Part shown: positions 7,001-33,055 of the stretch, one piece after another
Layout: each line of letters starts with the position of its first letter
Position numbering within the stretch: the first letter of the stretch is position 1
IMG/VR virus record: IMGVR_UViG_3300044228_003889
Coordinates: 1 to 33,055 of that record
Source: a virus
Taxonomy: Duplodnaviria > Caudoviricetes
Direction: 5' to 3' (one strand)
DNA length: 33,055 nucleotides
Made by a program: the position numbers and the translations under genes
The notes under the pieces: model-generated
Told to the model about the DNA's origin: nothing
What the model saw: only the letters and a program-made list of their open reading frames with translations
Database searches by the model: none

Positions 7001-10000
7001 TTTAAATTAAGTAGTGCAGGAACAGCAACAACTATATCAAATACAAATTATGAAAGAAAAATATATGAAAAATTAAGTAGTATTGGAGTTGGAACCCATA
7101 CATTTAAATATCCTAATATTCGAGTTGAAATTAATGGGCAAATTTCTGCAGGTACAACTTCTACAATTCCTGATTATTATAAAGCGTCAGCTGATGTTGA
7201 AGTAAGAGGGGGGTTAAAAAATATTTTTGTAAAAAATGGTGGTGTTGGATATGGAGTAACAAATATAGTAAATTATTTAAAAAAACCAAAAATATCTTTA
7301 CTAACTGGAAAAAATGCGTTTTTAACACCTAATGTTGTAAATGGTAAAGTAGAGAGTGTTTCTATTGGAAACGGTGGTTCTGAATATACAAGTCCACCAA
7401 TACTTGAAGTTGTGGAAGTTGGTAAAGCAATTGGAACTATTGGTGCAGTTGCTGAATTAAAAGCAGTCGTATCTGACGGAAAAATAACTGATGTTAAGAT
7501 AATTAAAAAAGGAAGTAAATATAATCCAAACAACACAATAATAAGAATTACACCATCAGGATCTAAATCAATCATAACAACTAAAATTCATGAATGGAAA
7601 ATAAATGCAGTAGAGAGATATGATCATGTTTTAACAGAAAATAATTCTCAATTTGTTCAAATAAATTCAGAATCATTAGACTACAATAATAAAATTTGTT
7701 CTTTTTATCCTGTTAAAAAATATCGTCGTTTACTCAGAGATAATATTGATTCCAATTTAATAGAATTTGTAGATGATCACTCAAAAATAGTTGGATGGGC
7801 ATATGATGGTAATCCAATTTATGGGCCAGTTGGTGTTAACACTTCTGGAATTACCACATATATGCAATCTAGTTATCAACTTGATATTATCGCAGATTCT
7901 GGTTTAAGACCATCAACTTATCAAAATGGATATTTCATTCAGGATTATGTTTATAAAGGAAATGGTGATTTGGATGAGTTTAACGGAAAATTTTTAATAA
8001 ATTCAGATTTCCCAGAGGGAACTTATGCTTATTTTTCAACTTTGAACAATACTAGTAAAAATCCATCTTTCCCTTACATTTCATTCCAACATCGTAATGC
8101 CACTGATAATTTTAATTATAATTTAAACAGTAAACAAATAGATAAAGTAATTAATAGTGGAGAATATAAAAGAAATGTAACTCATTTAGGTTTGAATGAT
8201 GAGTTTAGAAGATATCCTGTTCTTAATGATTCTCTTGAATCAAAGGCATTAGTCAAAATTGATGGGGTAAAAGACTCAAGAATTACAAAAGTTAGCGTTG
8301 ATGGATCTGGAACTGGATATAAAGTTAATGATAGAATTATTTTTAACGATCCTTCTATAACATCTAGTGTAGATCAAGTTATTGGTAAAAAAATTGTATC
8401 TGTAGGAACCACTAATACAATTATCAATAATTTAATATTTTCAGTTCTTGATGATCAAGTAACAGGTTTTTCTACAATTCCACATGGACTATCTGCAGGA
8501 GATATTGTTGAAATATCTGGAATATCATCAACCCTTTACAAAAATATAGAGGGAGTACAAACTATTGGTGTAACAACAACTACTGCCAGTTTATCTCAAG
8601 CTATCGGAAATGCAGCTACAACTGGAATTACAACATTTATAAGTCTTAGTTCTCCAACCTTAAATAGAAAATTTGAAGTTGATGATGTTTTCCAAATTGG
8701 ATCAGAGCAATTCCTTGTAATAGATCATGATGATGTTAACAACAAATATAGAGTTAGAAGAGGTTATAATTCTTCAGGAAATACTACTCATAGTGCTGGA
8801 ACAATAGTTAATAAATTAGAAACAAAATTTACATATCCAATATCAAAAAAAGTAGAAAATATTAATGTTCAATTTCCTAAAATTGAATATTTTGAAGGAA
8901 CAAGTTCAATCGGAATTGGAACAAGTGTATCGAATGTCATTGTTGGACAAGTAGGAATAACATCCATTTATAAATCAATTCCTGCAAAGGCAATTTACTT
9001 ACCAAATCACAAATTTCAAAATGGAGATGAAGTAAAACTAATTTCTATTGGATCAACCATTAATGCAACTAGAAATGCAGATTTATCTAATCCATTTGAT
9101 TTATCAAGCTTTGATAAACTTTTCTGCACTAGATTCAATTCAGAATTTATTGGTTTAGCTACTGAAAAAACAGGAATAGGAACTTTAGGTATAAGTACAA
9201 CATCACAGAATGTATTTTTTAAAGAGGTTTTGACCACAGGTGGTGATGATAATAAACTTGAATTACTTACTAATAACGTATTTGGATCTTTAAGAAAAGT
9301 CAATGGAACTGTTACTGTTGCAACATCTGCAACTACAGGTCAACACCATGCATTATCCGTTGGGGATGAGTTTGAGTTACATTTAACAACTAATAAAACA
9401 CAAACATTCAATTTAAAATATAACGAAAGTATTCAAAAATTAGTTGTTAATCCTTTATCTTTCATAGATTCGGCAATTGGAATAGGGACAACCATGTCAA
9501 CTATAACAATTAATGATCATGATTTTCAAACAGGAGATTTGGTTGTTTATAATTCAACAACACCAGCAGATCCTTTAGTTAATGATGGAGTTTACTATGT
9601 AATTAAAGAATCTAGAGATACCATAAGATTAGCAGAAAATGCTTATGATTTATCAATATTTCCATATAATTATATTGGAATTGGAACAACTGGAGGAACC
9701 AATCATGAAATATCAAAAATTAATCCAAAATTATCTTTCTATAAAAACAATACAGTAGAACTTGTAACCACCGATTCAAGTTTAGATGATTTTAGTATAG
9801 AATTTTATGAAGATAAAAATTTAAAATCAAAATACAATAGTAATTTAATTACTAAAACTAGTGATAAAATTACCATATCTGTAACTGATTTATTAGCACA
9901 AGAGTTTTTCTATAAGATTGAAGGTAAAAAAACTAATTTACATAAAACTTTATCTTTCCCTGTAGATGAAAGAGTTCCAAATCATTCGCAAATAGTATTA

Positions 10001-13000
10001 GTTGAATCTAAATTTAATGATAAATTTAAAGTCGTAGGAATTAGTTCTGACACATTTAAATTTAATGCCACTGGTATTGCTGAAACCACTTCCTACACTT
10101 CTACAGGCCTTTCAACATCATTCTATTCAACATCATCAATTAATGAAATTGGAGGAATACATTCTGTAAATGTTTTAAATAAAGGATTTAATGTTAGAAA
10201 ATTACCACTAATAACCTCAATAGGAACAACTGATGGTTTAAATTCTGTTTTAACTGTAGAAGCAGATGATATCGGAAAAATAGAAAGTACTCAAGTTATT
10301 AATCAAGGTTTAGAATTTTCTCCTGATAACACTTTAAAACCAAAAGCAGATAGTAATGTGCTTCTAAAATTAAAAAATGTATTAACTTTAGATAGTATTG
10401 GAATTACTTCAGGTGGAGTTAATTATACAAATCCACCAAGCGTATTAGTGATTGGAAAACCAAATATACTTGCACAAACAACTATAAGTGGAACTTCAGT
10501 TAATAGTGTTAAAATTTTAACAAATGACAGTGGATTATCTGAGGACGTTAGAATTATTCCAATTACAAATTCAAATGGAGTTGTTGTAACTGGTGCTGAT
10601 ACAGATGCTCTTGGAACCGTAACTCTATCATTAAGGGCACCAAATCCAGAGTCTGGTTCTGAAAGTGGATTCTATAATTCAGGTGGTGATTTTCCATTCG
10701 CAGTAAATGATGAAATATTTGTTGAAAATATTAAAACTACGGATAATCCGAATGGTGGATATAATTCAAGTGATTATAATTACACCTATTTTAAAGTAAC
10801 TGGAATCGGAACTACAGGTGGTGGAGAAACAGTTAGTTATTCATTAGTTGGCCTTGGATCAACTGGTGGAACATATCAGGAAGATAATAATTTTGGTAGA
10901 GTTATAAAAAAAGATAACTTAGCGGTGTTTAAAGCAATTTTCAAAGAAACAGTATTTAGTGATGATGAAATAGTTAGAGTAGACGGTAAAAATGTTTCGG
11001 GAATAGTGGCTAGAAATGGTTGGGATCCAATTTCAGAAACTTTAAAAGTATTCAGCACTAATGGTGATTTTTCACCAAATGATAAGATAGTAGGATCTAT
11101 AAGCAATAATAAAGGAACTGTAACGGAACAATTTAAATTTGATTTTGATTTGGATGTGGATAGTTTGGCTAATATTAATAATAGTTGGAAAACAAATATT
11201 GGAAAATTAAATTCTGACATCCAAAAACTTCATGACAATCATTATTATCAAAGATTTTCTTATTCAATTAAAGGAGAAGTTCCATATAACACATGGAAAG
11301 ATGCTGTTAATAGTTTAGATCATGTTGCAGGATTTAAAAACTTTTCTAATTTAGGTATTAGTACAGTAGGAATACAAACTATAAAATCAGATTCTGAAGT
11401 TGTTTTAAATGTAGACGTTGATCAAGAAGCGTCAGTGAATGAGAGATATTATTATGATATGGCTTCTGAGGATACTAATGATCCAGAATTATCAAAATTG
11501 ATTGTATTAAAATCTAAAATTATAACTGACTATAACGAATCAAGAACAAATAAAGTACTTTTAATAGATGATATAAGTTCACAATTTACTGGAATTGTAA
11601 CATCAATTGGTGGTGGTGTAATTGGTACAACTAGTTTTAATGTCTTTGCAGATGGAAATTCATTATTTCATAGAGAATTTAATCCATCCACGGGAGTATC
11701 AACTGTAACACACAAAATAAATCTTCCAAAACATAATTTTAATACTGGTGAAGAGTTAGTATATAAACCACACACTGGACAATCTCCCATTGGAATTGCA
11801 AATACATCTGATGTTAACGCTGGTGTGGCTGCAACAACATTATTACCATCAACTGTTTTTGTAATAAGAGAAGATCCAGATATTATTAAAGTTGCAATTT
11901 CTGCTACTTTTGCATCTGCTGGAATCGCAGTATCATTTACTAACGTAGTTGGAATAGCAAATACTAACATTCTTTCAGTTCCCTCAGAAAATGCCACTAT
12001 CCGATCCTTAATAACTGTTGATAATATAATTCAAAGTCCCATTGGCATTACAACTGCCATATCTGTAGGATTAACTACTGAAGTGGGTATATCAACCACA
12101 ATTCTATTTTTGAATGACACTTCAGAAATTTCAGGTAAGTCATTATTAAAAATAGAAGATGAAATAATTAAAGTGTCTATTGTTGGTCTTGGAACAACTA
12201 CTCTAAACGTTGAAAGAGGTCAAATGGGAACTGTTGCAGTAGCACATACAGTGGGTGCAGCAGTGACAGTGGTTAAAGGTGATTACAGAATAAATGAAGG
12301 AAGAATATATTTTTCTGAAGCACCTTATGGGCCAGCTGGGATTGGTACTCTTACGACTAAATCTACATTTAGTGGTAGAGCATACTACAGGTTAACTTAT
12401 GATACTAATAAAATTATTGATGATATATCAGATAGATTTGATGGATCTACCGATCAATTTAAGATGACAACAAATGGAAATGAATTGTTAGGAATTTCTA
12501 GTAGTTTTGGTGCAGTATTAATCAATAATATATTCCAAAAACCTTTTTTTGGAGATGTCGGTGACATTAACAAATCTGATTATCAAATAATTGGAGCAGG
12601 AAGTTCGATTGATTTTACAGGAACATCAGCAAATAAAGATTTACCTAGAGGAGGAATTATTAATGAATTTGATGTAGGAATTGGCTCTGGATATCAAGTT
12701 CCCAAAAAAGCAATACTAACTGCTGTGGTTTCAGCAGGTGGAACAATACAATCTGTAGGAATAGCTAGTGGTGGTGCTGGTTACTTGTCCAATCCTTTGG
12801 TCTCAGTGAGTTCTACAACTGGAGTTGGTGCTGCAATATCCGCATTTGTAACTGCTGGCATAGTTACATCTGTCACAATTACAAATCCTGGTTCAGGTTA
12901 TGCACAAGGTGGAATTTCAACTGGAATAAATTTTGTAACAACTGAACTTCCAAGTCCTTATAAAAATATTCCATTGTCTGGTGGAAATGGATCTGGTGCA

Positions 13001-14506
13001 ACGATGGATGTGGTTGTTGGGACTGGTGGAAGTATACTATCATTTGACATAGCAGATCGTGGTGTAGGTTATGAAATAGGAGATAATTTGCAGTTAACTA
13101 CACTACCATTCCAAGTAGGAATTGGAACAAGTGCGTTTAATATAACTGTAAAAAATAAATTCCAAGATAAATTCGCAGGATGGTGTTTTGGCCAATTATT
13201 AGAACTTGATGATTTTAGTATTCAGTTTAATGGATCTAGAAAATCATTTTTAATAACTCGTACAATTAAAGATAAAGAATACTATAGTATAGTTGCTCAA
13301 GAAGGATCAGGAATTATTCTACAAAATAATCTCTTGATATTCATTAATGATATTTTACAGAGACCAGGTCTTGATTATGAATTTGAAGGTGGAACTAGAA
13401 TAACATTTAAAGAACCACCAAAACCAGGTAGTTTATTTAAAATGTATTTTTATACTGGTTCTACGTCCGACTTTGTTGAGGTAGATGTTGACGAAACAAT
13501 AAAACCAGGTGACGAATTAAGATTACACTATTTTAATCAAAGTAATGTAAATTCTAGTATTTCTTCTGGAATTAGAACTGAATCCGTAATCACATTAGAA
13601 AAAAAATCTGAGCAAGATAATAGAGTGGTTTATGAATTAATAGCAGCAGATACAGTGGAAACCACAACATATTCTGGAGTTGGTATATCTACTAATGCTG
13701 ATTTTGCTCGACCAATGATGTGGAGAAAACAAACACAAGATTTAATAATAGATGGAGTAAGCATATCAAAAGAGAGAAATTACTTAGAACCTGATATAGT
13801 ACCAACAAGTGGAATAATTAAATCGATTTCACCAACTGATAGTAAAATTTATGTCAAAGACTCTTGGATGTTTAAAAAAGTTGATGACTTAGGACAAACT
13901 CTGAATAATATAAACATAGTTGGTTTGGGAACAACTGCTGTTGTTGAGACAATCGAGAAAGTCACATATGAAGGTGATTATGGAGTTGTCGTTGGAATTG
14001 GAACTAGTCTTGTAGGTATTAATACAACTGGGCCTGCACTATTCTTTGAAATTGTACCACATGAAAACATATATGATCCAGACGGTATACCAAATGGTTC
14101 TGAACAGGATAAAAGATCCAAATCTGGTATTTCTACTGGTGATTATTTTGTAATTGAAAATACATTTATAGGAAATGGAATTACTGGAATAAAAACTACA
14201 TCTTCAGGCCCAGAAACTGTAGGTGTTGGAAATAGTTTCTTAAATAATGTTTATTTTGCTGAAGATTATGTTTCTGTTGGATCTTCTATGATAAGAGTTT
14301 TCGCAAATGTTAATTCGATTGCAGGTATAGATACAACAACACTAACAACTAAAGTTAAATATGGAACTTATAGTTGGGGTTCAATTAATGTATCTAGAAG
14401 TGCTAATTCAAAATCATTTACTTTCCACAATCAAAATGGAGTTGTTGGAATTGAGACCTCAGCTCAAGTGATAAGAACTATACCAATCAAAACTTCTTAT
14501 ACATAA
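4013..14506 (+). CDS. gp7: Giant baseplate wedge initiator, gp7-like (3497 aa), multi-repeat
   Basis: Lies between gp6 and gp8. N-terminal QIPDFI...F..FL..YYE, RDFYSSKGT..S...LF..LYG and LHDNHYYQRFSYSIK...W...V..L.H.AG match gp7-like cyanophage proteins. Confidence 0.8.
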   Translation: MSDKKVKISNILGSQIPDFIQADNPLFKEFLTQYYESEEREYGTTYLADHISSLKKIPTVADISLVKKQTVNVPGTASPESPVLISSFLYAYDDVINVNQTTGFPDKYGLLKIDNEIITYTGKTATSFTGCIRGFSGISEIETVSNPEFLTFSDTNADAHDENSTVTNLSFLFVTEFYKKFRKHFLPGLEGRDFSYGINVENILSRARDFYSSKGTDTSLQILFQVLYGKQIDVIKPFDQTIMPSEAEYDVSDNIIVEVLFGNPLNLVGVKIYQDSFTNPTASGAVSNVNTKFLGNKKYYEISFSKGTIIDKLKVSTKTKVIGAASTTEVLTVDSTIGFGETGNFYYPNEDNIYTLAEYTSKSSNQFFGCTGVSRLLTESESIIDTNFVYGYENNDLTKICTMRIVGTISGASDNKDSTKYFDFDDLIRVKHLGEKYDVSDKKFNTWFYNNISYVDALGHVADGDTINDSAADRTFTTSTEHFLKIGDRVDIFFKESGVKFRENSEVSVVNNEKQIQIDGGIINTKIISGDYVIKKRLNYTSSNFGITNLLSNIQNSFSDKDKNTYVSFSGYPSFDTQTTNRSHVFQSSAINANTITINDHNFINGEKVYLSLSLDSGLSEGSSGYYYVNVINNNNFKLSTSYPNLYNSVFETITWSGVGSGEHTITPASLYIGQKLSNQNNLRRIYKNPQVSKNNSRIIGAIGISLNGVEYHSPISNESVYYGQIDELQVTNSGENFDVINPPTLLITDKNGTNCETIVNFSGQPTKVILNKSGFDYLNTPSVRIVGGNGTGAVCKAKMRGFNYSRSYTDFNVDLTTNRITGEHRFSDGEEVRYIATGTPIGITTGVNVGFNTDRLTSGTSYFIAKYDNNSFGLAINEDRALTKTNLLDLFDFGNQVHTFESQKVRNIIDRIEITNTGSSYDNHRVEIPSQLYPPINLKDVFKTFVGINTFNDYVYAKNHNFKNGDIVDYICSGTVISGLSTSIPYQITVIDNDKFKLSSAGTATTISNTNYERKIYEKLSSIGVGTHTFKYPNIRVEINGQISAGTTSTIPDYYKASADVEVRGGLKNIFVKNGGVGYGVTNIVNYLKKPKISLLTGKNAFLTPNVVNGKVESVSIGNGGSEYTSPPILEVVEVGKAIGTIGAVAELKAVVSDGKITDVKIIKKGSKYNPNNTIIRITPSGSKSIITTKIHEWKINAVERYDHVLTENNSQFVQINSESLDYNNKICSFYPVKKYRRLLRDNIDSNLIEFVDDHSKIVGWAYDGNPIYGPVGVNTSGITTYMQSSYQLDIIADSGLRPSTYQNGYFIQDYVYKGNGDLDEFNGKFLINSDFPEGTYAYFSTLNNTSKNPSFPYISFQHRNATDNFNYNLNSKQIDKVINSGEYKRNVTHLGLNDEFRRYPVLNDSLESKALVKIDGVKDSRITKVSVDGSGTGYKVNDRIIFNDPSITSSVDQVIGKKIVSVGTTNTIINNLIFSVLDDQVTGFSTIPHGLSAGDIVEISGISSTLYKNIEGVQTIGVTTTTASLSQAIGNAATTGITTFISLSSPTLNRKFEVDDVFQIGSEQFLVIDHDDVNNKYRVRRGYNSSGNTTHSAGTIVNKLETKFTYPISKKVENINVQFPKIEYFEGTSSIGIGTSVSNVIVGQVGITSIYKSIPAKAIYLPNHKFQNGDEVKLISIGSTINATRNADLSNPFDLSSFDKLFCTRFNSEFIGLATEKTGIGTLGISTTSQNVFFKEVLTTGGDDNKLELLTNNVFGSLRKVNGTVTVATSATTGQHHALSVGDEFELHLTTNKTQTFNLKYNESIQKLVVNPLSFIDSAIGIGTTMSTITINDHDFQTGDLVVYNSTTPADPLVNDGVYYVIKESRDTIRLAENAYDLSIFPYNYIGIGTTGGTNHEISKINPKLSFYKNNTVELVTTDSSLDDFSIEFYEDKNLKSKYNSNLITKTSDKITISVTDLLAQEFFYKIEGKKTNLHKTLSFPVDERVPNHSQIVLVESKFNDKFKVVGISSDTFKFNATGIAETTSYTSTGLSTSFYSTSSINEIGGIHSVNVLNKGFNVRKLPLITSIGTTDGLNSVLTVEADDIGKIESTQVINQGLEFSPDNTLKPKADSNVLLKLKNVLTLDSIGITSGGVNYTNPPSVLVIGKPNILAQTTISGTSVNSVKILTNDSGLSEDVRIIPITNSNGVVVTGADTDALGTVTLSLRAPNPESGSESGFYNSGGDFPFAVNDEIFVENIKTTDNPNGGYNSSDYNYTYFKVTGIGTTGGGETVSYSLVGLGSTGGTYQEDNNFGRVIKKDNLAVFKAIFKETVFSDDEIVRVDGKNVSGIVARNGWDPISETLKVFSTNGDFSPNDKIVGSISNNKGTVTEQFKFDFDLDVDSLANINNSWKTNIGKLNSDIQKLHDNHYYQRFSYSIKGEVPYNTWKDAVNSLDHVAGFKNFSNLGISTVGIQTIKSDSEVVLNVDVDQEASVNERYYYDMASEDTNDPELSKLIVLKSKIITDYNESRTNKVLLIDDISSQFTGIVTSIGGGVIGTTSFNVFADGNSLFHREFNPSTGVSTVTHKINLPKHNFNTGEELVYKPHTGQSPIGIANTSDVNAGVAATTLLPSTVFVIREDPDIIKVAISATFASAGIAVSFTNVVGIANTNILSVPSENATIRSLITVDNIIQSPIGITTAISVGLTTEVGISTTILFLNDTSEISGKSLLKIEDEIIKVSIVGLGTTTLNVERGQMGTVAVAHTVGAAVTVVKGDYRINEGRIYFSEAPYGPAGIGTLTTKSTFSGRAYYRLTYDTNKIIDDISDRFDGSTDQFKMTTNGNELLGISSSFGAVLINNIFQKPFFGDVGDINKSDYQIIGAGSSIDFTGTSANKDLPRGGIINEFDVGIGSGYQVPKKAILTAVVSAGGTIQSVGIASGGAGYLSNPLVSVSSTTGVGAAISAFVTAGIVTSVTITNPGSGYAQGGISTGINFVTTELPSPYKNIPLSGGNGSGATMDVVVGTGGSILSFDIADRGVGYEIGDNLQLTTLPFQVGIGTSAFNITVKNKFQDKFAGWCFGQLLELDDFSIQFNGSRKSFLITRTIKDKEYYSIVAQEGSGIILQNNLLIFINDILQRPGLDYEFEGGTRITFKEPPKPGSLFKMYFYTGSTSDFVEVDVDETIKPGDELRLHYFNQSNVNSSISSGIRTESVITLEKKSEQDNRVVYELIAADTVETTTYSGVGISTNADFARPMMWRKQTQDLIIDGVSISKERNYLEPDIVPTSGIIKSISPTDSKIYVKDSWMFKKVDDLGQTLNNINIVGLGTTAVVETIEKVTYEGDYGVVVGIGTSLVGINTTGPALFFEIVPHENIYDPDGIPNGSEQDKRSKSGISTGDYFVIENTFIGNGITGIKTTSSGPETVGVGNSFLNNVYFAEDYVSVGSSMIRVFANVNSIAGIDTTTLTTKVKYGTYSWGSINVSRSANSKSFTFHNQNGVVGIETSAQVIRTIPIKTSYT

Positions 14507-14510
14507 CAGG

Positions 14511-14518
14511 TATAAATA
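14511..14518 (+). promoter_or_regulatory. T4-type late promoter TATAAATA
   Basis: Exact gp55-dependent consensus in the gp7-gp8 spacer. Confidence 0.8.
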
Positions 14519-14537
14519 ATCAAAAATGTAAGTATCA

Positions 14538-16175: not shown

Positions 16176-16179
16176 AAAG

Positions 16180-19100
16180 ATGCCACAAAATACTAATTTA
16201 AACGTTTCTCCTTACTTCGATGATTTTGTTGATAGTAAAAACTATCAAAAAGTTCTATTTAAACCAGGATTTCCAGTTCAAGCAAGAGAATTAACTACAC
16301 TACAGTCAATTCTTCAAAATCAGATTGAAAAATTTGGACAACACTTCTTTAAAGAAGGTTCAATGATAATTCCTGGTGGAACTTCTTATGATTCTGAGTA
16401 CCATGCAGTAAAAATAGATCCAAATTTTTTAAATATTCCAGTTAGTAGTTACACAAAAGTTTTAGTAGATAATAATATAAAGATAAAGGGAGAGACATCT
16501 GGTGTTGAAGCTACTGTAGTTAATAGAATACTATCTTCAGAATCAATTGATGGGTTTGATACTTTATACGTAAAGTATACAAAATCAGGAACAGATGGGG
16601 AAACTAAAGTTTTTCTAGATGGAGAAAATTTAATAACACTTTCAGATATAAGTTATCTCAATACAAGTATTACAGCAAATGGTCAATTTGCAAGGACTAT
16701 TGTATCTAATTCAACATCTATTGGATCTGCATTTTCTGTGAGTGAAGGTGTTTATTTTATTCGTGGATTTTTTGTAAAAAATGTCTCCTCAACAGTCATA
16801 TTAGATCAATATGCAAATACTCCTAGTTATAGAGTTGGATTTTTATTAAAAGAAGAAACATTAGGGCCTTCATCTGTTAATTCTGATTTGTATGATAACG
16901 CAAAAGGATTTTCAAATGAGGCTGCACCTGGAGCAGATAGATTTAAATTATCAGTAGTTTTACATAGAAAACTTTTAACAGATACGAATGATAGTGATTT
17001 TGTTGAATTGTTAAGAGTAGAAAATGGTGTAGTAAAGGAAATAGTAACTAAAACTGATTATAATATTTTTGCAGATGAATTAGCAAGACGAACATATGAT
17101 GAATCTGGAGATTATTATATCAAACCTTTTTCTATTGATGTTAGAGAATCTTTAAATGACAGAATTGGTAATAGAGGAATATATTTTGATACTCAACAGA
17201 CTCAAAATGGAAATGCACCAGCAGACGATATAATCAGTTTACAAGTTTCTTCAGGAAAGGCATATGTCAGAGGTTACGAGATAGATAAAATATCCACAAC
17301 ATCGATTGATGTTTTAAAACCAAGAACAACTAAATTGGTTGAAAATCAGAGTGTTCCAATAAGAATGGGTAAATCTGTAGAAATTACTAATGTAGTTGGT
17401 TCACCAGAAATTGATTTTTCAAATAATACTACTAAACAAGTTTCTTTTTTACGTAATCGATTAACTAATCTAAAAGCTGCTCAAGTTGGAGCATTTGATG
17501 TAGATGATAGAGTAGGAACTGCAAAAGTTTATGATTATAAACAAAAAACTACATCAGGAATAGCAGTTACGACTTATAATTTATCACTTTACGATGTTCA
17601 ACTTTATACACGTCTTACTATTTCAAAAAATATTGACGCTAGTTATGGTTCTTATACTCGTGTAGAGGGGAAGTATAGTGGTGCAGTTGGATATTCAGTA
17701 TCTACAATAACTAATACAACTGTAATTGTTCTTACTGATGTTACAGGTCAATTTCAACTTAATGAACCATTAATTATTAATGGTATTACTGAAGGTAATA
17801 GTGTAACTGCAATAGAGGATAATACTTTTGAGGACATTAAAGCAGTTCATAGTTTTGATGGATTAGGAGCTGGTAGTACGACATTTGCTGCAAATACAGT
17901 TTTAAGCACCACAAAAAAAGCATTTCCTGAAAGTATTGAATTTACTATAAGTGGTGGTAACACGCTAAAGTCTCCTCAAATCGCTGATTTTAGAAGTCAA
18001 ATAAAGGTTGGTGATATCATCATATATGGAACAGCAGGTGAAACTGATCCTACATTTAACAAAGTAACATCAGTTGTACAAAATCAAGTAGGTCTTGCAG
18101 CAGTTGCAGATGTAACTGATGTCTGTGATGGTAGTGTAAACAATGGCACAATATCTGGTTTGAATGTTGTAATTCCAACTTTAAATGAAACAGATGATCC
18201 TGGTTTTAGAGTTAAATTGGCAGACAAATATATCTCATCAATGAATGTTTTAGATAGTTCTTACATTATTAGAAAAAAAATAAGTAAAACTTTTACTGAC
18301 AATTCAGTTCAATTTAATATTAGTGACATTACAACTGGTGACACTTCCAATCTTTTCTTTGAACCTTTTAGTACATCAAACTATGTATTAGAACTTGATA
18401 ATACTGTTGAAAAACTATTAGATCCGATGGTAAGTGTTGATTCAGGATTAAAGCAAGTTACAATTTCTGGTTTGTCTGGGCCTGCTACTAGTAGAACTGC
18501 AAAACTTATAGTGGCAGTCAGAAGAAGTAAATTAGCATCAAAAGAAAAATCACTCACAAGATGTAGTAATTTAATTGTAGATAGATCAGAATCAGTTGGC
18601 TCTGGAACAACTATTGATGGATTAACTACAAGTACAGTTTATGGAACAAGAGTTCAAGATAAGGAATTATCATTAGACGTTCCAGAAGTAACTCGTGTTT
18701 TAGCAGTTCTTGAATCAAATGATAACAACTCTCCAGATTTACCATTAATTGGTGTTACAAATCAGAGTGATACCTTTACTGATAATGTCGTCGTTGGTGA
18801 GCAGTTTATTGGAGGGACATCAGGTGCAGTTGCTCGTGTAGTGGTGGTACAAGCAACTCAGTTGTCTTTTGTTTATGAAAACGAAAATACATTCGAAATA
18901 GGAGAAAACATCTCTCTGAAGACCTCTGGAATCTTTGCTACAATAACTGGAATAACACCTGGTGATAGAAATATACTTAAAAATTATGATCTAGATAATG
19001 GTCAGAGAGAAGAATTTTGTGATTATTCGAGACTCATGAGAAAGGTTGATTCAGAAAAACCAACTCGTAGACTAAGAATTATATTCGACCACCTTGTTAA

Positions 19101-22100: not shown

Positions 22101-23532
22101 AACTGGATCTGGAGTCAGGGCAGTTGTTACATCTCATGTATCAATTGGTGGAACAGATTTAATTATTTTAGATGAAGTTAGCAATGATTTTGTTGCAACC
22201 ACAGATATGGTTCATTTTACCCAAAGTGGATCACAAACAACTTTATTAAACGGTGAGATTACTTCGGTTAATCCAGATCCTATAAGAGATGGATATACTC
22301 TTAAATTTGATCATAAAAATCATGGAATGCATGCAAATACAAACAAAGTTAAAGTTTCAAACTTCCATCCAGATGGAGCTCCAACAACTCTATCCCAGAA
22401 TATAGATGATGATAGTACTCAAATAACTGTCACATCTGGAACTAGTTTTGAAACATTTGAAGGTAAAACAGTTAGTGTATCTTTTCCTGGTTATATTTTA
22501 ATTGACAAAGAAATAATAGAATATAGAGGTGTTTCTGGAAATATTTTAACAAATATTACTAGAAGTATTGATTCTAGTTTAAAATCAAATCACAGTGCAA
22601 CAACTTCAGTATTTAAATATGAATTTAATGGTGTTTCATTACTTAAAATCAATAAAGAACATGACATTGATCCTAGAGAAAAAACATTTGATAGTTATTT
22701 TGTAAAAGTTTCTACTGCATCAACAGAACCAACGTTTAATACAACAAAAACAGGTGGTGGCAGTGCAGTTCATGTATCCCAAAATATTCCTTTTGAAGTA
22801 ATTGACCCACAAATTACCTCAATTACACCTACTGGAACAAATGTATCTGCTAGAATTAAAACAACATCTGGAACAAGTTTAAGTGGAAATGAAGCATCAT
22901 TTGTCGATGCTGGTTATGAAAATGTCGCATTGAATAAATTGAATTATCTTGATAGTCCTAGAATCATAGCTTCAAAAACTAATGAATACAATATACTTAG
23001 TAACGAAAAATCATTTGCTTTAGAGTTAACACTCACAACTAACAATTCAGATGTATCACCAGTAATTGATTTAGAAAATCCAAATGCTATCTTGATAAGT
23101 AATCTTGTTGATGATAAAGTTGATGATTTTGAAACTGCTAGTGGGCCAAAAATTCCTGGTTATGATCCTAATACTGCAATATATGAAACAAGAATGATTA
23201 ATTTAGAATTTGTTTCTAATTCATTGTTTGTTCAATTTGATGGGCATAGAGAAGCAGAAGGAGATATTCGAGTATTCTACAAATTAATAAGAAGTGATGG
23301 TGATGATACTCATGCAACTTATATTCCATTCAATAGTAACGGATTACCAGACAAAGTTATAAATCCAAACAAAAATAGTAATGCCTTTAGTGAGTATAAG
23401 TTTACTGCTGAAAATACTCCACAATTTAATGGATTTATGATTAAAGTCGTCATGACATCAACCAGTCAGGCAAAACCACCTAGAATTAAAAACTTTAGAT
23501 CAATTGCTCTTAGGTCATTTGAGATTGAATAA
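16180..23532 (+). CDS. VrlC-like / DUF4815 large virion structural protein (2450 aa)
   Basis: NLNVSPYFDDF, VLFKPGFPVQARELT.LQS.LQ.Q, APGADR, LARRT.DESGDY, GKAYVRGYE, RYTMRDIG.LE.RI..LEYYT-like, DPLAQSF motifs. Confidence 0.85.
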   Translation: MPQNTNLNVSPYFDDFVDSKNYQKVLFKPGFPVQARELTTLQSILQNQIEKFGQHFFKEGSMIIPGGTSYDSEYHAVKIDPNFLNIPVSSYTKVLVDNNIKIKGETSGVEATVVNRILSSESIDGFDTLYVKYTKSGTDGETKVFLDGENLITLSDISYLNTSITANGQFARTIVSNSTSIGSAFSVSEGVYFIRGFFVKNVSSTVILDQYANTPSYRVGFLLKEETLGPSSVNSDLYDNAKGFSNEAAPGADRFKLSVVLHRKLLTDTNDSDFVELLRVENGVVKEIVTKTDYNIFADELARRTYDESGDYYIKPFSIDVRESLNDRIGNRGIYFDTQQTQNGNAPADDIISLQVSSGKAYVRGYEIDKISTTSIDVLKPRTTKLVENQSVPIRMGKSVEITNVVGSPEIDFSNNTTKQVSFLRNRLTNLKAAQVGAFDVDDRVGTAKVYDYKQKTTSGIAVTTYNLSLYDVQLYTRLTISKNIDASYGSYTRVEGKYSGAVGYSVSTITNTTVIVLTDVTGQFQLNEPLIINGITEGNSVTAIEDNTFEDIKAVHSFDGLGAGSTTFAANTVLSTTKKAFPESIEFTISGGNTLKSPQIADFRSQIKVGDIIIYGTAGETDPTFNKVTSVVQNQVGLAAVADVTDVCDGSVNNGTISGLNVVIPTLNETDDPGFRVKLADKYISSMNVLDSSYIIRKKISKTFTDNSVQFNISDITTGDTSNLFFEPFSTSNYVLELDNTVEKLLDPMVSVDSGLKQVTISGLSGPATSRTAKLIVAVRRSKLASKEKSLTRCSNLIVDRSESVGSGTTIDGLTTSTVYGTRVQDKELSLDVPEVTRVLAVLESNDNNSPDLPLIGVTNQSDTFTDNVVVGEQFIGGTSGAVARVVVVQATQLSFVYENENTFEIGENISLKTSGIFATITGITPGDRNILKNYDLDNGQREEFCDYSRLMRKVDSEKPTRRLRIIFDHLVNNETSGNVETVNSYNTLDYSKDIPYVFDSWASDYLDFRPRVAPFNRSGSSASPFVNASRNFALSNSDNVVSGKTVVVDYSYYQGRVDRLYLTKDGLFDVKEGKPSRIPKAPVHNQGAFQVATIKYPPYVRHASEVLTKKVPHKRYTMRDIGGLENRIKNLENYTTLSLLETDTKNLSIKDPNTGLDKFKSGFFVDNFRNHSSHNLIGESKFDIDIDNSECRPRSTERNVGLIFETVTTQSNPTTTDYNFVNDFSDSNITRGGAALTLNYTESLFIDQPNATRVENLNPFLVDVFVGSIELLPSSDFWIEEIPLAPQNIEIDNAFDAISQLLGVEDRENGGMASSFWNSHETTWNGRDSATLINENIIDSRVTNRDVDVNRVRDTRAWEITTTTTTDIQNTIRQTFEETGIEREFNFELSAGQEVIDLGTKVVGIDVLYNVRSRNIQVFAKKVKPNTRYYVFMENTDLTPYAVPKYLPITMNRGTFAINDIVESSNSETSGNASIKFRVASPNHKSGPYNNPNDLVTILPFPNITVPTAYSSTSEILNIDTADLSLENNIDNIGWARKGMQLVNSAGTAEATVGDLALFSDSKGDLIFSLHIPDPKISGNPLFTTGNNTIRVTTSQTNASILDPGSSSAETEYFASGYQTNTQEQTLSIKTPQIERVEVASEEVTRTFNRERTENITTVDVDVRRRRIRRDPLAQSFLVYPNVYPNGIFITSGEVFFKTKDDEIPVSVQIRTMRDGIPTQTIVPFGETVINSEDINLSEDGSAATTFTFKSPVYLQSGYEYCIVLMAPHTLNYLAFINRMGESDLITQGLNSTQPTLGSLFKSQNNSTWTPSQYEDLKFKLNKADFVTNSPSSVLLYNSELPLGKIKKVNPVVGFSKRVNVKLGIATEMTLTPGDEIQQTVSGVVHTGRIFKTGGPIKTGTSKLTIISNTGIGLTDGAFTGIGFTSLTGDGSGLTANVTVASNAVTAGNVNIQSGGSGYAPGDLLLMNSLGATGSGVRAVVTSHVSIGGTDLIILDEVSNDFVATTDMVHFTQSGSQTTLLNGEITSVNPDPIRDGYTLKFDHKNHGMHANTNKVKVSNFHPDGAPTTLSQNIDDDSTQITVTSGTSFETFEGKTVSVSFPGYILIDKEIIEYRGVSGNILTNITRSIDSSLKSNHSATTSVFKYEFNGVSLLKINKEHDIDPREKTFDSYFVKVSTASTEPTFNTTKTGGGSAVHVSQNIPFEVIDPQITSITPTGTNVSARIKTTSGTSLSGNEASFVDAGYENVALNKLNYLDSPRIIASKTNEYNILSNEKSFALELTLTTNNSDVSPVIDLENPNAILISNLVDDKVDDFETASGPKIPGYDPNTAIYETRMINLEFVSNSLFVQFDGHREAEGDIRVFYKLIRSDGDDTHATYIPFNSNGLPDKVINPNKNSNAFSEYKFTAENTPQFNGFMIKVVMTSTSQAKPPRIKNFRSIALRSFEIE

Positions 23533-23756: not shown

Positions 23757-23758
23757 TT

Positions 23759-23766: not shown

Positions 23767-23795
23767 TTCCAAGATAGATTCTAATTAGTTAAATA

Positions 23796-24134: not shown

Positions 24135-24139
24135 TCAAC

Positions 24140-25801: not shown

Positions 25802-25804
25802 ACT

Positions 25805-25981
25805 ATGAACAGTGAAGTTGATGTGAATATTTTGATTAATCATTACCATAAGAAATTATCAACATTAGTTAATCAAAATATATTATTAGAAGCAAAAATG
25901 GAATCCATGACAAAGGATTACATGGATCTGAAGCAAAAATTTGATGAATTACAGAGTCCTAAAAGAGGAATTAAAAAATGA
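25805..25981 (+). CDS. Small coiled-coil hypothetical protein (58 aa)
   Basis: MNSEVDVNILINHYHKKLSTLVNQNILLEAKMESMTKDYMDLKQKFDELQSPKRGIKK; fills the gap; ATGA overlap with gp13; not in ORF track. Confidence 0.75.
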   Translation: MNSEVDVNILINHYHKKLSTLVNQNILLEAKMESMTKDYMDLKQKFDELQSPKRGIKK

Positions 25982-26793: not shown

Positions 26794-26797
26794 TATT

Positions 26798-28243: not shown

Positions 28244-28246
28244 ATA
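28240..28246 (+). promoter_or_regulatory. Putative late promoter CTAAATA
   Basis: Late-promoter variant overlapping the gp14 stop, about 25 bp before gp15. Confidence 0.5.
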
Positions 28247-28270
28247 GTTTGGATAAGTCCTGTTTAAGAT

Positions 28271-29323
28271 ATGTTAGGAACCTATTATTACCATGAAATA
28301 ATCAGAAGGACTATTATAGCCTTTGGTACTCTTTTTAATGAAATCGATATTAAACATCAGACTGCTGCAGGTGGAGCATTTTCAACTGTAAGAGTTCCAA
28401 TTGCTTATGGCCCAACAGAAAAGTTCTTGGCAAGATTAGAACAGAAACCAGATTTGAGAAAGAGAGTCGCAATAACTTTACCTCGTTTAGCATTTGAAAT
28501 GGATGGGATATCATATGATCCAGCAAGAAAAGTCTCTACAATGCAAACTTTTAAAGCATTTACAAAAGATGGTTCAAAGAGTGCAAGAAAAGTATTCATG
28601 CCAGTTCCATATAATTTAAGTTTTAAGTTATATGCAATGACTCAATATAATGAGGATTCACTTCAAATTATTGAACAAATATTACCATACTTCCAACCAT
28701 CATTTAATTTAACTGTAGATTTAGTTAAAGCAATTGGCGAAAAAAGAGATATACCAATGGTACTAGACAGTGTTACCTTTGATGATAATTATGATAGTGG
28801 TTTTGAGCAGAAAAGAGTTATAACACACACATTAGGATTTACAGCAAAAACTTACTTGTTTGGCCCAGTATCAGATTCTGGTTCAGGTCTTATTAAGAAA
28901 GTTCAGGTTGATTATCATACAAGTGCTAATACTAAAACTGCATCAAGATCTAAGAGATATGTTGCAACACCAAGGGCACTCAAGGATTATAATGATGATG
29001 CAGTAACAACACTTGCAGAAGATATAACAAGAACACAGAAGAAATTCTTAGTTCAAGATACATCAAGTTTAGTTGTAGATACTTACATTGCTATCGGTGA
29101 TGAACTTATGTTTATCAAAGAAATTGACGGTAATAATATTACAGTAAAACGTGGTGAAGATGGAACAACTATAGATACTCATATAAACGGTGATGTAATT
29201 GACGCAGTTAATGCTCAAGATGATGCACTTGTTGAAGTTGGTGATGACTTTGGATTTAGTGAACAAAGGTTTGATTTACCAGACTTTAGAACATATAGTC
29301 CTACAAAAGGAGTTGATGTATGA
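28271..29323 (+). CDS. gp15: Tail sheath stabiliser/terminator gp15, with extra C-terminal domain
   Basis: YYH..IR..I.AFG.LFN.I, VPIAYGP..KF, LPRL.FE, P.PY, QI.EQILPYF.P. Confidence 0.93.
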   Translation: MLGTYYYHEIIRRTIIAFGTLFNEIDIKHQTAAGGAFSTVRVPIAYGPTEKFLARLEQKPDLRKRVAITLPRLAFEMDGISYDPARKVSTMQTFKAFTKDGSKSARKVFMPVPYNLSFKLYAMTQYNEDSLQIIEQILPYFQPSFNLTVDLVKAIGEKRDIPMVLDSVTFDDNYDSGFEQKRVITHTLGFTAKTYLFGPVSDSGSGLIKKVQVDYHTSANTKTASRSKRYVATPRALKDYNDDAVTTLAEDITRTQKKFLVQDTSSLVVDTYIAIGDELMFIKEIDGNNITVKRGEDGTTIDTHINGDVIDAVNAQDDALVEVGDDFGFSEQRFDLPDFRTYSPTKGVDV

Positions 29324-29739
29324 GTAAGTTCGATGAAATAGATGAGTTTTTGGATATAGAAGCAGTTGATGATTCAAAAAATAATCAAATTGAAGAAGTA
29401 AATAAAAAAGATGATCCAACTCTTGATTATGAATACTCAAGAGGTAACTTATATTCTTTAATTGAAAAAGGACAAGAAGCACTTAATGGTATTCTTGAAG
29501 TAGCACAGGGTAGTGACCATCCGAGAGCATACGAAGTTGCAGGACAATTAATTAAAAGTGTTGGAGATACAACTGATAAGTTGATTGATTTACAATCAAA
29601 AATGAAAGAGTTGAATAAAGAAGAAAAAGATTCACCAAAAACAGTTAATAATGCATTGTTTGTTGGTTCTACTTCCGAACTTTCAAAGTTATTGAAGAAG
29701 GGAGTTCTAAATAATAATGTGGAAAAGGAAGAAGAATGA
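29320..29739 (+). CDS. gp16: Terminase small subunit gp16
   Basis: DYEY.R..L, A..S.HPRAYEV, NNALFVGST.EL. Confidence 0.93.
   Translation: MSKFDEIDEFLDIEAVDDSKNNQIEEVNKKDDPTLDYEYSRGNLYSLIEKGQEALNGILEVAQGSDHPRAYEVAGQLIKSVGDTTDKLIDLQSKMKELNKEEKDSPKTVNNALFVGSTSELSKLLKKGVLNNNVEKEEE
29707..29713 (+). promoter_or_regulatory. Putative late promoter CTAAATA inside the gp16 3' end
   Basis: Late core 22 bp upstream of the ATG at 29736. Confidence 0.45.
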
Positions 29740-30449
29740 AATCATTTAAAGAATTTTTACAAGAAAGTAGTTTAACAAGACTGAAGAGTAAGTCAGATAA
29801 AGGTGGTATGGCTATTCTTTCTGGAAGTCGTGGTGATAAATCTGCAAAAGAAAATCGTGCAAGAGCAAAGCAGTTAGATAAAGACATTCGTGGTAAGTTT
29901 GGAAAGGGTGCAACAAAAGTAACTGGAAAATATCTAGAAAAAGATGAAAAAACTGGACAAGAAAAGAAAGTAAAGGAAAGAAGTCACGTTGTAACTTCTG
30001 GAAAGATGGGTAAGAGAAAGTTTAAAAAAGCAGTCAAAGCACTTGGTAAAAAATATGATCAGGATGCAGTCATCACACAAACAAAAGGTGGTGGAGGTGC
30101 TACACTAAAAAGAACTCGTAAGGGTGGATTACCAAAAAGAAATATACCTATTGGTAAGATGAAACCTCAAGGTAGAAATCCAGAGGCAGAAACTCAAATT
30201 AAGGGTAAGACATTTACTTATGAATCTTATCTTCGTGTTCAAGAAAGAGGTAAAACATACACAATAGTTCTTAGTTGGAAAGGTAAATTGATTACAACTC
30301 AGATGTTCATACCTTCATTTAAAAGACCAACAAAAGCAGAAATGACAGTAGAAATTCAAAAGGTATATCCAACAGCAATTGTAATGTACTTCAATCCATC
30401 AATGGTAGATCCAACAAAACCGATGTTGTTTGCTGGACAAGAAACGTAA
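29736..30449 (+). CDS. Basic hypothetical protein, candidate internal head protein (237 aa)
   Basis: N-terminus MKSFKEFLQE resembles the T4 internal-protein capsid-targeting sequence; very Lys-rich. Confidence 0.7.
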   Translation: MKSFKEFLQESSLTRLKSKSDKGGMAILSGSRGDKSAKENRARAKQLDKDIRGKFGKGATKVTGKYLEKDEKTGQEKKVKERSHVVTSGKMGKRKFKKAVKALGKKYDQDAVITQTKGGGGATLKRTRKGGLPKRNIPIGKMKPQGRNPEAETQIKGKTFTYESYLRVQERGKTYTIVLSWKGKLITTQMFIPSFKRPTKAEMTVEIQKVYPTAIVMYFNPSMVDPTKPMLFAGQET

Positions 30450-30455
30450 GTTGTC

Positions 30456-32099
30456 ATGAGTGAAATTTATCTTGGTAATCCTAATCTAAAAAAAGCAAAT
30501 ACACAAATTCAATTTTCTGCAGAGCAGATTGAAGAGTTTTTAAAGTGCAAAAACAATCCCGTATACTTTGCACAGAAATATGTAAAGATCGTATCTCTTG
30601 ATGAGGGATTAGTTCCGTTCAAACCATATAAGTTTCAAGAAAAATTAATTAAAAGATTTCATAAGAATCGTTTTAATATATGCAAGATGCCTCGTCAGAC
30701 TGGTAAGTCAACGACTGTGGTTTCATATTTGCTTCATTATGCTGTTTTTAATGATAGTGTAAATATTGGTATACTAGCAAACAAAGCTGCAACTGCAAGA
30801 GAATTGTTAGGAAGATTGCAGACTGCATATGAGAATCTTCCAAAGTGGATGCAACAGGGTGTGTTGGTATGGAACCGTGGATCACTGGAGTTAGAAAATG
30901 GATCAAAAATACTGGCAGCATCTACCTCTGCATCTGCAGTTAGAGGTATGTCTTTCAACATTCTTTTTCTGGATGAATTTGCCTTTGTTCCTAATCATAT
31001 TGCTGACTCGTTCTTTGCCTCTGTATATCCTACTATCACTTCTGGTAAAAAAACCAAAGTCATCATAGTTTCTACTCCACATGGTATGAATCATTTCTAC
31101 CGATTGTGGCATGATGCAGAAAGAGGAAAAAATGAATATACACCGACTGATGTTCACTGGTCTGAAGTACCAGGTAGAAATGCAAAGTGGAAAAAACAAA
31201 CGATAGCAAACACATCAGAACAGCAATTTAAAATTGAGTTTGAGTGTGAGTTCTTAGGATCTATTGATACTTTAATTGCACCAAGTAAACTTAAATCTTT
31301 AGTGTATGAAAATCCAATACAACAAAATGCAGGATTGGATATTTACATCCCTCCAGAAAAAGACCATGATTACTTAATGACGGTTGATGTTGCACGAGGA
31401 GTTGGTGAAGATTATTCCGCATTTGTTTTGACCGATATTACTGAGTTTCCACATAAAGTTGTGGCTAAATATCGAAACAACGAAATCAAACCAATGTTAT
31501 TTCCAAATATCATATATGAAGTAGCAACAAATTATAATCAATCTTTTATCCTATGTGAAGTAAATGATATCGGAGACCAAATAGCATCAATATTAAATTT
31601 TGATTTAGAATATGAAAATTTACTAATGTGCTCCATGAGAGGTCGTGCTGGTCAAATTGTAGGACAGGGATTTAGTGGAAAGAAAACTCAACTTGGAGTT
31701 AAAATGTCAAAGACGGTCAAAAAGGTTGGTGCATTAAACCTCAAGACTATGATAGAGGAAAATAAACTTTTATTTAAAGATTACAATATAATATCTGAAC
31801 TCACCACATTTATATCAAAAAGTAATTCATTTGAGGCTGAAGAAGGATGTAATGATGATTTAGCAATGTGCCTTGTAATATACGCATGGTTAGTTGCACA
31901 AGATTATTTTAAAGAACTTACAGATCAAGACGTAAGAAAAAGATTATATGAAGAACAAAAAAATCAAATTGAACAAGATATGGCACCTTTTGGTTTTATA
32001 TCTGATGGGTTGGATGACGGTAGTTTTGTAGATAATGAGGGAGATACTTGGCACGTTGATGAGTATGGAGATCGTTCTTATATGTGGGAGTATCGGTAA
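30456..32099 (+). CDS. gp17: Terminase large subunit gp17
   Basis: YLGNPNLK, Walker A PRQTGKST, Walker B ILFLDEFAF, VSTPHG, nuclease VDVARG...DYS and DDLAM. Confidence 0.97.
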   Translation: MSEIYLGNPNLKKANTQIQFSAEQIEEFLKCKNNPVYFAQKYVKIVSLDEGLVPFKPYKFQEKLIKRFHKNRFNICKMPRQTGKSTTVVSYLLHYAVFNDSVNIGILANKAATARELLGRLQTAYENLPKWMQQGVLVWNRGSLELENGSKILAASTSASAVRGMSFNILFLDEFAFVPNHIADSFFASVYPTITSGKKTKVIIVSTPHGMNHFYRLWHDAERGKNEYTPTDVHWSEVPGRNAKWKKQTIANTSEQQFKIEFECEFLGSIDTLIAPSKLKSLVYENPIQQNAGLDIYIPPEKDHDYLMTVDVARGVGEDYSAFVLTDITEFPHKVVAKYRNNEIKPMLFPNIIYEVATNYNQSFILCEVNDIGDQIASILNFDLEYENLLMCSMRGRAGQIVGQGFSGKKTQLGVKMSKTVKKVGALNLKTMIEENKLLFKDYNIISELTTFISKSNSFEAEEGCNDDLAMCLVIYAWLVAQDYFKELTDQDVRKRLYEEQKNQIEQDMAPFGFISDGLDDGSFVDNEGDTWHVDEYGDRSYMWEYR

Positions 32100-32215
32100 T
32101 GAAGAATCCATTTAAGCATGCTAAATTGAAAAGATTACTATCAAAATCATTTCCAAAAAAGAAAATAACTATCATAGATAACAAAGACGGATCACAAACA
32201 ATCTTTATACTTTGA
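32099..32215 (+). CDS. Small basic hypothetical protein (38 aa)
   Basis: MKNPFKHAKLKRLLSKSFPKKKITIIDNKDGSQTIFIL; TAATG overlap with gp17 and TGATG overlap with next ORF. Confidence 0.6.
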   Translation: MKNPFKHAKLKRLLSKSFPKKKITIIDNKDGSQTIFIL

Positions 32216-32451
32216 TGGATAAGAACGAAGAGTTTGGTTTTACTCTTGAACATTTACTCTTTCAGGAAAGAAAATGTAGAGTTTGTGGAGAAACAAAAGA
32301 TTTAGTAAATGAGTTTTATCTAATTCGTAAAAACAAAAGAAACTTTCCATCTGGGTATTCTTATGAATGTAAGATATGCACAGTCAAAAGAATTTTAAAA
32401 AATCGAAAGAAAAGTAAGGTATCAACTGAATGGTCATATCCAGACTGGTAA
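32215..32451 (+). CDS. Small zinc-finger protein (CRVC...CKIC)
   Basis: R.CRVCGE.K.L...FY.....SY.CK.C pattern. ATG at 32215 preferred over TTG at 32212 because of stop/start overlap. Confidence 0.75.
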   Translation: MDKNEEFGFTLEHLLFQERKCRVCGETKDLVNEFYLIRKNKRNFPSGYSYECKICTVKRILKNRKKSKVSTEWSYPDW

Positions 32452-32490
32452 TGTTCATGCATTGTTTCCCCAATGTAAAAGTAGCAAATA

Positions 32491-32497
32491 ATAAATA
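32491..32497 (+). promoter_or_regulatory. Putative late promoter (ATAAATA) for gp18
   Basis: Late core in the spacer before gp18; GAGGG SD at 32526-32530. Confidence 0.6.
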
Positions 32498-32536
32498 CTT
32501 TTAGTAAAATTGAATCTTTTATAAAGAGGGAAAGAC

Positions 32537-33055
32537 ATGTCGCTTAACTTAGTATCTCCTGGAGTCAAGGTAAGAGAAGTTGACTTGACTATCGGTAATA
32601 TATCTGGAGCACAAGAACAGGTCGGAGCGATTGCTGGCCCATTTGAAAAAGGCCCCATTGATGTACCGTTGTTAATAGAAAATGAGCAAGATCTTATAGC
32701 AACTTACGGAAAACCATTAGACACAGACGGACAATTTGAATATTGGATGACTGCATCATCATACCTTTCATATGGTGGTACACTAAGAGTTTTAAGATCC
32801 GATAGTTCAAATTTAAATAACGCAAACGCAGGTGTTAGTGCTGAATCAGTAACTACAAAAATTAAATCATATGATGAGTATAATTCAAATACTTATAGCA
32901 CTTTTTATTATGCAGCAAGAAACCCTGGTACATGGGGTAATGGATTAAAGGTATTCACGATTGACCATTTTGCTGATCAAGTTATTAGTGGAATCAGTAC
33001 AGGTGATATTTCAGTTGGAATGGGTGTAACCCAATCAATATCTGGAAGAATTCGA
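32537..33055 (+). CDS. gp18: Tail sheath protein gp18, 3'-truncated
   Basis: MSLNLVSPGVKVREVDLT...GAIAGPFEKGP...YLSYGG.L.V.R...AARNPGTWGN; open to the window end, hence absent from the track. Confidence 0.95.
   Translation, partial: MSLNLVSPGVKVREVDLTIGNISGAQEQVGAIAGPFEKGPIDVPLLIENEQDLIATYGKPLDTDGQFEYWMTASSYLSYGGTLRVLRSDSSNLNNANAGVSAESVTTKIKSYDEYNSNTYSTFYYAARNPGTWGNGLKVFTIDHFADQVISGISTGDISVGMGVTQSISGRIR

Follow-up and report, generated by a model that had tools for sequence, protein, structure and literature searches.

Why should a phage write one dipeptide exclusively with the glycine codons that it otherwise rarely uses? The question is raised by a virus contig of 33,055 bases (hereafter the window; the entire record IMGVR_UViG_3300044228_003889, 32% GC), in which an earlier note had remarked that every Gly-Pro pair carries GGG or GGC (GGS, S being G or C) and that the word GGWCC (W being A or T) is missing. 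We confirmed that this observation is real and strong. Because Gly-Pro spells GGNCC and Pro-Gly spells CCNGG, neither word can be removed from such pairs, and each can only be steered to its W or S form. The choice has a consequence for shorter words, as GGSCC always includes GGCC and CCSGG always includes CCGG.

Gly-Pro spelling and the missing GGWCC

The 20 genes called in the window contain 13 in-frame Gly-Pro pairs, all on the plus strand and all written with GGS (eight GGG-CCN and five GGC-CCN). Four lie in the 3497-amino acid baseplate wedge (gp7-like) gene, as GGG-CCA at 7823–7828, where the orthologous site is GGW in six of six aligned isolates, GGG-CCA at 12329–12334, GGG-CCT at 14030–14035 and GGC-CCA at 14207–14212. 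The gene for a 2450-amino acid structural protein (16180–23532) has GGG-CCT at 16864–16869 and 18478–18483. GGG-CCA is found at 20644–20649, where P-TIM68, S-SSM7, Bellamy, S-SCSM1 and locus L025 have GGW, and again at 21868–21873 and 23143–23148. Both pairs in gp15 (28271–29323) are GGC-CCA, at 28409–28414 and 28862–28867, and every non-clade relative with Gly-Pro there uses GGW. The last two, GGC-CCA at 32636–32641 and GGC-CCC at 32651–32656, belong to the gp18 tail sheath gene, in which S-SSM7 has GGACCT.

Glycine is mostly encoded by GGA (412) and GGT (367) in the window, with 39 GGG and 28 GGC, and GGW thus accounts for 779 of 846 codons (92%). Under this usage, the probability of GGS at 13 of 13 pairs is about 5e-15. 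Neither GGACC nor GGTCC occurs anywhere in positions 1–33055, although about 14 copies of GGWCC (14.4 ± 1.9; minimum 9 in 300 shuffles) were expected from synonymous-codon shuffling and 10.6 (minimum 4) when the dinucleotide joining codon positions 3 and 1 was preserved. A general preference for GGS ahead of any codon starting with C was ruled out, as GGW is kept before CA (32/39), CT (10/12) and CG (3/3). The avoidable form of GGSCC is tolerated, as GGGCC occurs off the Gly-Pro frame at 19187–19191 and 20789–20793. Host DNA uses GGWCC freely (55 copies in 159 kb of overlapping loci), and therefore its loss from the phage is not a translational constraint.

The plus strand of the window encodes a T4-like structural module at 1731–33055 (gp25, gp6, the gp7-like gene, gp8, a large structural gene and gp13–gp18), the genes being named by their order and similarity to P-TIM68. 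The terminase gene gp17 (30456–32099, plus strand) shares 81.5% DNA identity with P-TIM68, a Prochlorococcus phage and the closest isolate, and 72–78% with the remaining cyanomyoviruses (the range over cultured members was also obtained as 74–82%). Both the structural gene order and the terminase similarity match cultured members of Kyanoviridae, and the window can be assigned by its sequence to a T4-like cyanomyovirus, whose structural module it represents. Since gp17 is closest to that of P-TIM68, the host would be a picocyanobacterium, probably Prochlorococcus.

A clade trait that recurs in other lineages

A gp6 search covering one third of IMG/VR returned 612 candidates, the best 80 of which gave 71 IMG/VR loci. 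The 27 closest to the window (L221–L247, 237.5 kb) were taken as its clade; they contain the same genes and overlap, and are therefore not independent. These loci wrote Gly-Pro 40 times with GGS and never with GGW, and had no GGWCC against 50 expected. The 44 non-clade loci had 148 GGW and 11 GGS, and 193 GGWCC against 189 expected. Raw GGWCC was also zero in the 153.8 kb of 18 metagenome clade loci (some of them the same contigs) and in the entire clade contigs G005 (29.7 kb) and G006 (52.2 kb). At orthologous Gly-Pro residues the clade members swap GGG and GGC and never use GGW, and the cultured relatives have GGA or GGT. A scan of genome assemblies for a host cell carrying the clade found 22 loci, none of them from it. 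The searches for clade contigs gave none above 52 kb, which left the clade without a connection to its replication region.

The loss is not limited to Gly-Pro codons. Outside them, GGWCC was absent from two pooled clade sets in which 14 and 11 copies were expected, the latter being the 18 metagenome loci. The one-base neighbours AGACC, TGACC, AGTCC, TGTCC, GGACT and GGACA were near expectation, making the five-base specificity exact, and 15 sequences examined for a general purge of GACC/GGTC gave no sign of one. Because the neighbours are near expectation and GGWCC is absent also off Gly-Pro, the target is the DNA word itself. Three other causes have been considered, namely a codon-pair preference in translation, decay by mutation and a selection that favours GGCC. 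The first is contradicted by the out-of-frame zero and by sister phages that write GGW at identical residues. Decay of a methylated site, proposed in the earlier note, was not supported, as it cannot drive codons to a rarer GC-rich form, its products were not raised in the window (GGATC 67 against 60 expected, GGACT 15 against 27, GGTTC 35 against 40, GGTCT 21 against 24) and C5 methylase (PF00145) was absent from 24 of 25 phage records. Selection for GGCC, the other proposal of the note, drew support from the window, where GGCC outside Gly-Pro is found 11 times against 4 expected, and it lacked support in the clade as a whole, whose 27 loci have 21 against 25. GGCC outside Gly-Pro is also raised in contigs G497, G498, G500 and G501. 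Between them, the out-of-frame and orthologue tests largely dispose of this whole group of explanations, which we regard as highly improbable.

The GGWCC-free state was found in 3 of 80 terminase loci. A pattern of two GGS-CCN pairs in gp18 retrieved 120 loci, and 63 of the 79 new flanked ones had no GGWCC in their open reading frames. Twelve contigs picked by this pattern, the window included, had no raw GGWCC over 30–115 kb and wrote every Gly-Pro with GGS. In a tree built from 138 gp18 sequences, the free and non-free labels were scattered and required 14 changes, the alignment being short and the sample enriched for the state; one GGWCC-free cluster is sister to S-SSM7, itself GGACCT. The purge is thus a trait of the clade, and several unrelated lineages of marine myoviruses show it as well. 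Intermediates were also seen. AG-345-O18 has nine GGW and nine GGS Gly-Pro pairs, interspersed, and no avoidable GGWCC. Locus L110 carries a 5-kb clade-derived gp18–gp20 tract (L110:1980–7143) with GGSCC inside a GGWCC-bearing background, a mosaic that is probably recombinant, although possibly an assembly chimera. Three distant GGWCC-free myoviruses (G001, G002 and G003) are also devoid of many other words, six-base palindromes as well as non-palindromic ones, an avoidance broader than that of the window.

The cultured phages were compared by observed/expected GGWCC outside Gly-Pro in 100-kb samples or whole genomes. The word was purged in P-SSM2 (3/10), P-HM1 (1/20), P-SSM7 (4/16), P-RSM4 (5/15), P-TIM40 (2/37), S-SSM7 (2/27) and P-TIM68 (1/15), partly purged in S-SM2 (18/37) and S-SSM5 (18/28), and not purged in Bellamy (27/31), Sf-FS3 (23/23), S-SCSM1 (13/19) and G503 (18/17). 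The open-ocean phages of the first group also purge CCWGG outside Pro-Gly and all CCGG, yet retain GGW at Gly-Pro. GGWCC is therefore widely disfavoured, and the clade of the window took the final step. The cultured Prochlorococcus phages purge GGCC too, which is probably why they hold GGW at Gly-Pro, and the clade probably reached zero because GGCC is tolerated there. P-TIM68 was tried as a mirror case with a purge specific to GGSCC and was rejected, since its depletion belongs to a wider loss of GGCC/RGCY.

A putative GGWCC-cutting enzyme and the phage methylases

The earlier note had proposed selection against GGWCC by a host defence. The selection stands, on the clade-wide zero, the unrelated lineages, the orthologous codons and the sites off Gly-Pro; host defence as its agent is likely only. 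The count is near zero under a codon-preserving expectation, the loss is motif-specific in all frames, and GGWCC is among the established orthodox type II sites, being recognised by AvaII and HgiCII (PMC2615612). Restriction-site elimination, with a GGWCC-cutting type II enzyme as the putative agent, likely present in a minority of picocyanobacterial hosts, is on balance probable. Such an enzyme would destroy site-bearing phage DNA, and the clade would have recoded synonymously to GGS at Gly-Pro against its 92% GGW bias, with no return. The GGS escape would be open solely to GGCC-tolerant lineages, seemingly those without a Dam-like methylase, and GGWCC-keeping lineages would likely shield the site by N4-methylcytosine (m4C), as in other marine myoviruses. 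As the intermediates suggest, zero may have been reached site by site, and once there every new GGWCC would be costly, which would make the state stable.

Elimination of orthodox type II sites is an established strategy of virulent double-stranded DNA phages, and roughly one viral genome in ten shows it in near-complete form (Rusinov et al, 2018; PMC6286503); a lytic phage that has lost such a site is by itself ordinary. As in those phages, a short palindromic type II site has been wholly lost by synonymous change. Unlike them, the site here is one half of a dipeptide-forced motif, its loss costs rare codons and creates GGCC, and sister lineages are found in opposite states; the relevant passages of that study mention neither GGWCC nor cyanophages. 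Marine pelagiphage subgroups are depleted in GANTC (PMC9516812), a comparable clade-structured loss of one methylation or restriction motif, although the motif and hosts differ and the host methylase is described there. In marine myovirus-like genomes, m4C was measured at RGCY, GGWCC/GGHCC and CCWGG/CCNGG, and GGCC-type and CCSSGG-type methylases were the top matches (Hiraoka et al, 2022; PMC8919816). The virus group and motifs are the same as here, and N4 and GGCC-type methylases are present in the relatives, one of them in the clade. Those genomes keep and methylate about 15–65 GGWCC sites each, in contrast to the clade with none, and the portions of the paper that concern these motifs do not remark on GGWCC and CCWGG as forced by Gly-Pro and Pro-Gly. 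We found no paper on GGWCC loss in cyanophages, sites forced by Gly-Pro or the gene swap described below (few subscription journals were covered).

A candidate for the gene that sets the spelling was sought between gp44 and gp62. Among 16 long sequences spanning this interval, 11 carried a D12/Dam-like methylase (P-TIM68 127106–127930), four a DruA-like gene (L891:3065–4213 and homologues; 370–383 amino acids, PF14236, phrog_19197), one neither and none both. The 11 D12 genomes had GGS in 4 of 633 Gly-Pro pairs and AGCC/GGCT at 0.13–0.34 of expectation, and the eight additional D12 loci all kept GGWCC. M.Ssp6803II, a characterised GGm4CC enzyme, is D12/Dam-like, and D12-like GGm4CC methylases are widespread in cyanobacteria (PMC6105098); m4C at RGCY/GGCC is accordingly the predicted target of the phage D12 methylase. 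S-SM2 has no D12 gene, yet is RGCY-poor. Dam-like and Mom-like genes have been noted in a cyanomyovirus (PMC12801897). The DruA-like protein is a candidate DNA-modifying enzyme; its structure model was of low confidence (predicted local distance difference test 53), and its top fold matches were all GNAT acetyltransferases, none reaching E 0.001. In a set of 80 fetched gp44 loci, selected for one GGS-CCN codon, 59 were cyanophage-like. The 28 that were GGWCC-free had the DruA-like gene in 22, D12 in one, neither in one and the interval not covered in four, and the 31 that kept GGWCC had 18, three, three and seven, respectively. Judged from these relatives of the clade, the absence of D12 would be no more than permissive for the GGWCC-free state, and it is not sufficient.

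From these data a fuller scheme can be drawn, which we consider doubtful: the Gly-Pro choice is forced, the swap between a Dam-like m4C methylase and a DruA-like, GNAT-type modifier at gp44–gp62 would set the spelling of a lineage, the GGWCC-free state would escape a widespread putative nuclease, possibly phage-encoded, and gene flow between sisters would be one-directional. Other methylases were rejected as the switch. The gp049-type N4 methylase occurs in both GGWCC states. The gp157-type N4 methylase (P-TIM68 140400–141176) was found in loci that kept GGWCC in 80 of 80 cases and in 0 of 91 primase loci, but none of the GGWCC-free contigs could be shown to extend across its site. The gp157-type loci (L323–L402) are poor in TCGA (251 against 2055 expected) and CCGG (16 against 458), which suggests a target of the YCGR type.

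That GGWCC is itself modified, by a phage N4 methylase, a DruA-like transferase or a host C5 methylase, and is harmful when modified, for instance through a modification-dependent nuclease or a replication block, seems very unlikely. The motifs methylated in marine myoviruses (RGCY, CCWGG and GGWCC) are those depleted here, and the gp049-type methylase is present in the clade and in the cultured phages of strongest purge, but this methylase and the DruA-like gene each occur in both states, and S-SSM7 shows the same purge of avoidable sites without such a methylase. A 207-amino acid gene adjoins the N4 methylase of the clade and has no family match in Pfam, PHROGs or Atlas.

The nuclease was searched for in 285 Prochlorococcus-genus genomes reached through G011. 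C5 methylases were present in 74 of these, and among the 30 best C5 loci, four methylases had 63–64% identity to a methylase that accompanies an Eco47II-family nuclease, two of the four adjoining a TdeIII-family nuclease; LlaMI-type (two) and HaeII-type (one) nucleases were also found in these loci. The TdeIII, Eco47II and LlaMI families are associated with GGNCC/GGWCC and CCNGG as their sites, TdeIII mostly with GGNCC. TdeIII-family genes were above the cut-off in two of 285 genomes, each with a C5 methylase.

A further possibility is that the threat is a GGNCC cutter and that the forced sites were moved to GGSCC because a GGCC-type modification, of the phage or the host, shields them there. 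The earlier note took GGNCC restriction as excluded by the tolerated GGGCC and GGCCC, which was too strong, as Gly-Pro forces GGNCC, relatives purge both of its halves where avoidable, and modification could conceal GGSCC from such an enzyme. The TdeIII genes, the D12-like enzymes of cyanobacteria and the raised GGCC in the window and four other contigs fit this explanation. It is nevertheless quite unlikely, since the D12-bearing genomes are the ones that purge GGSCC, and few genomes of the host genus have a D12 methylase (4 of 151, one of these a phage contig). For the same rarity, a host GGCC methylase was rejected as free protection.

A GGWCC nuclease could also be encoded by phages, either the clade or common co-infecting ones, and degrade host or competitor DNA while sparing the site-free clade. 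A phage-side agent would fit an absolute zero across lineages of differing hosts, and restriction-like genes exist in cyanophages. A weak PvuII-like nuclease adjoins an N4/N6 methylase and a second small methylase in P-TIM68 (L001:46248–48278), possibly a phage restriction-modification cluster; a MutH/Sau3AI-like nuclease gene lies in the early-gene region of clade contig L539 (L539:3046–3684); and an RsaI-like gene adjoins a GTAC methylase in a marine viral metagenome-assembled genome. However, Eco47II and TdeIII had no match in the GGWCC-free contigs searched (five for each), and among the unknown shared genes examined no nuclease-like gene was shared by and confined to such contigs, these being fragments at most 64% complete, to which the negatives apply. 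The L539 nuclease was rejected as the agent because its three relatives sit in GGWCC-keeping, GATC-poor loci. We therefore consider a phage nuclease unlikely.

Several results weigh against restriction-site elimination by a host enzyme. No GGWCC-specific nuclease was found, with Eco47II and SinI families in 0 of 285 host-genus genomes (the Eco47II profile matched 4 of 201 cyanobacteria; the SinI profile had no positive control). TdeIII occurs in only two genomes, and if it cuts GGNCC, the switch to GGS gains nothing. The host is assigned through P-TIM68 as the single reference, and the GGWCC-free state also appears in distant myoviruses, probably with other hosts. In the gp44 loci the link to D12 is weak, with 1 of 4 D12 and 22 of 40 DruA-like loci GGWCC-free. 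S-SSM7 and Sf-FS3 lack D12 and yet write Gly-Pro as GGW/GGS 60/0 and 72/0, respectively, and S-SSM7 had no match to N4, D12 or C5 methylase, so that keeping GGWCC needs none of the three. Hiraoka et al (2022; PMC8919816) doubt a defensive role for the m4C methylases, since marine hosts show few restriction systems. The rarity of the host nuclease need not defeat the proposal, as in huge phage populations a small per-site cost could hold a zero once reached.

Picocyanobacteria are thought to be restriction-poor. The codon record indicates strong and repeated selection on exactly the motifs covered by the m4C methylases of marine myoviruses, and directs attention to the enzyme that cuts GGWCC and to the phage gene that chooses between methylation and erasure. 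Most worth following is the division of Gly-Pro spelling into two states, together with its link to a modifier gene that can be swapped; this spelling also offers an easy marker for telling lineages apart and exposing recombinant tracts.

Other words and a SAM lyase gene in the window

The earlier note had called CCWGG and GATC common. GATC is at expectation (122 against 125). CCWGG has 28 copies between 975 and 32928 on the plus strand, and is not simply common, as each copy is an in-frame Pro-Gly pair. CCGG, GCGC and CGCG, described as scarce, are all absent, and the depletion is significant in the window for CCGG only (expected 7–20; 19.5 by shuffle and 7.0 with the dinucleotide control), 1.3 GCGC and 1.5 CGCG being expected with that control. 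The 27 clade loci had 1 CCGG against 128 expected, 0 GCGC against 32 and 1 CGCG against 26. With CCSGG and CCGG absent, CCNGG in the window is reduced to its forced minimum, like in the cultured Prochlorococcus phages. GTAC and AGCT are each at about 0.4 of expectation, and coding DNA is poor in the Shine-Dalgarno-like words AGGAG/CCTCC and GGAGGA. GCCTA is absent (0 against 7) and was dismissed as a second purge, since its presence in G005, G006 and the clade loci points to chance.

Between gp16 and gp17, the gene at 29736–30449 encodes an S-adenosylmethionine (SAM) lyase domain (PF23780, E 2.7e-18) joined in one protein to the C-terminal domain usual at that position in most cyanomyoviruses. 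The N-terminus of its product resembles the capsid-targeting leaders of T4 internal proteins, and the product may be an injected anti-restriction enzyme. The complete fusion is present in clade contigs, and P-TIM68 encodes the lyase domain at another place.

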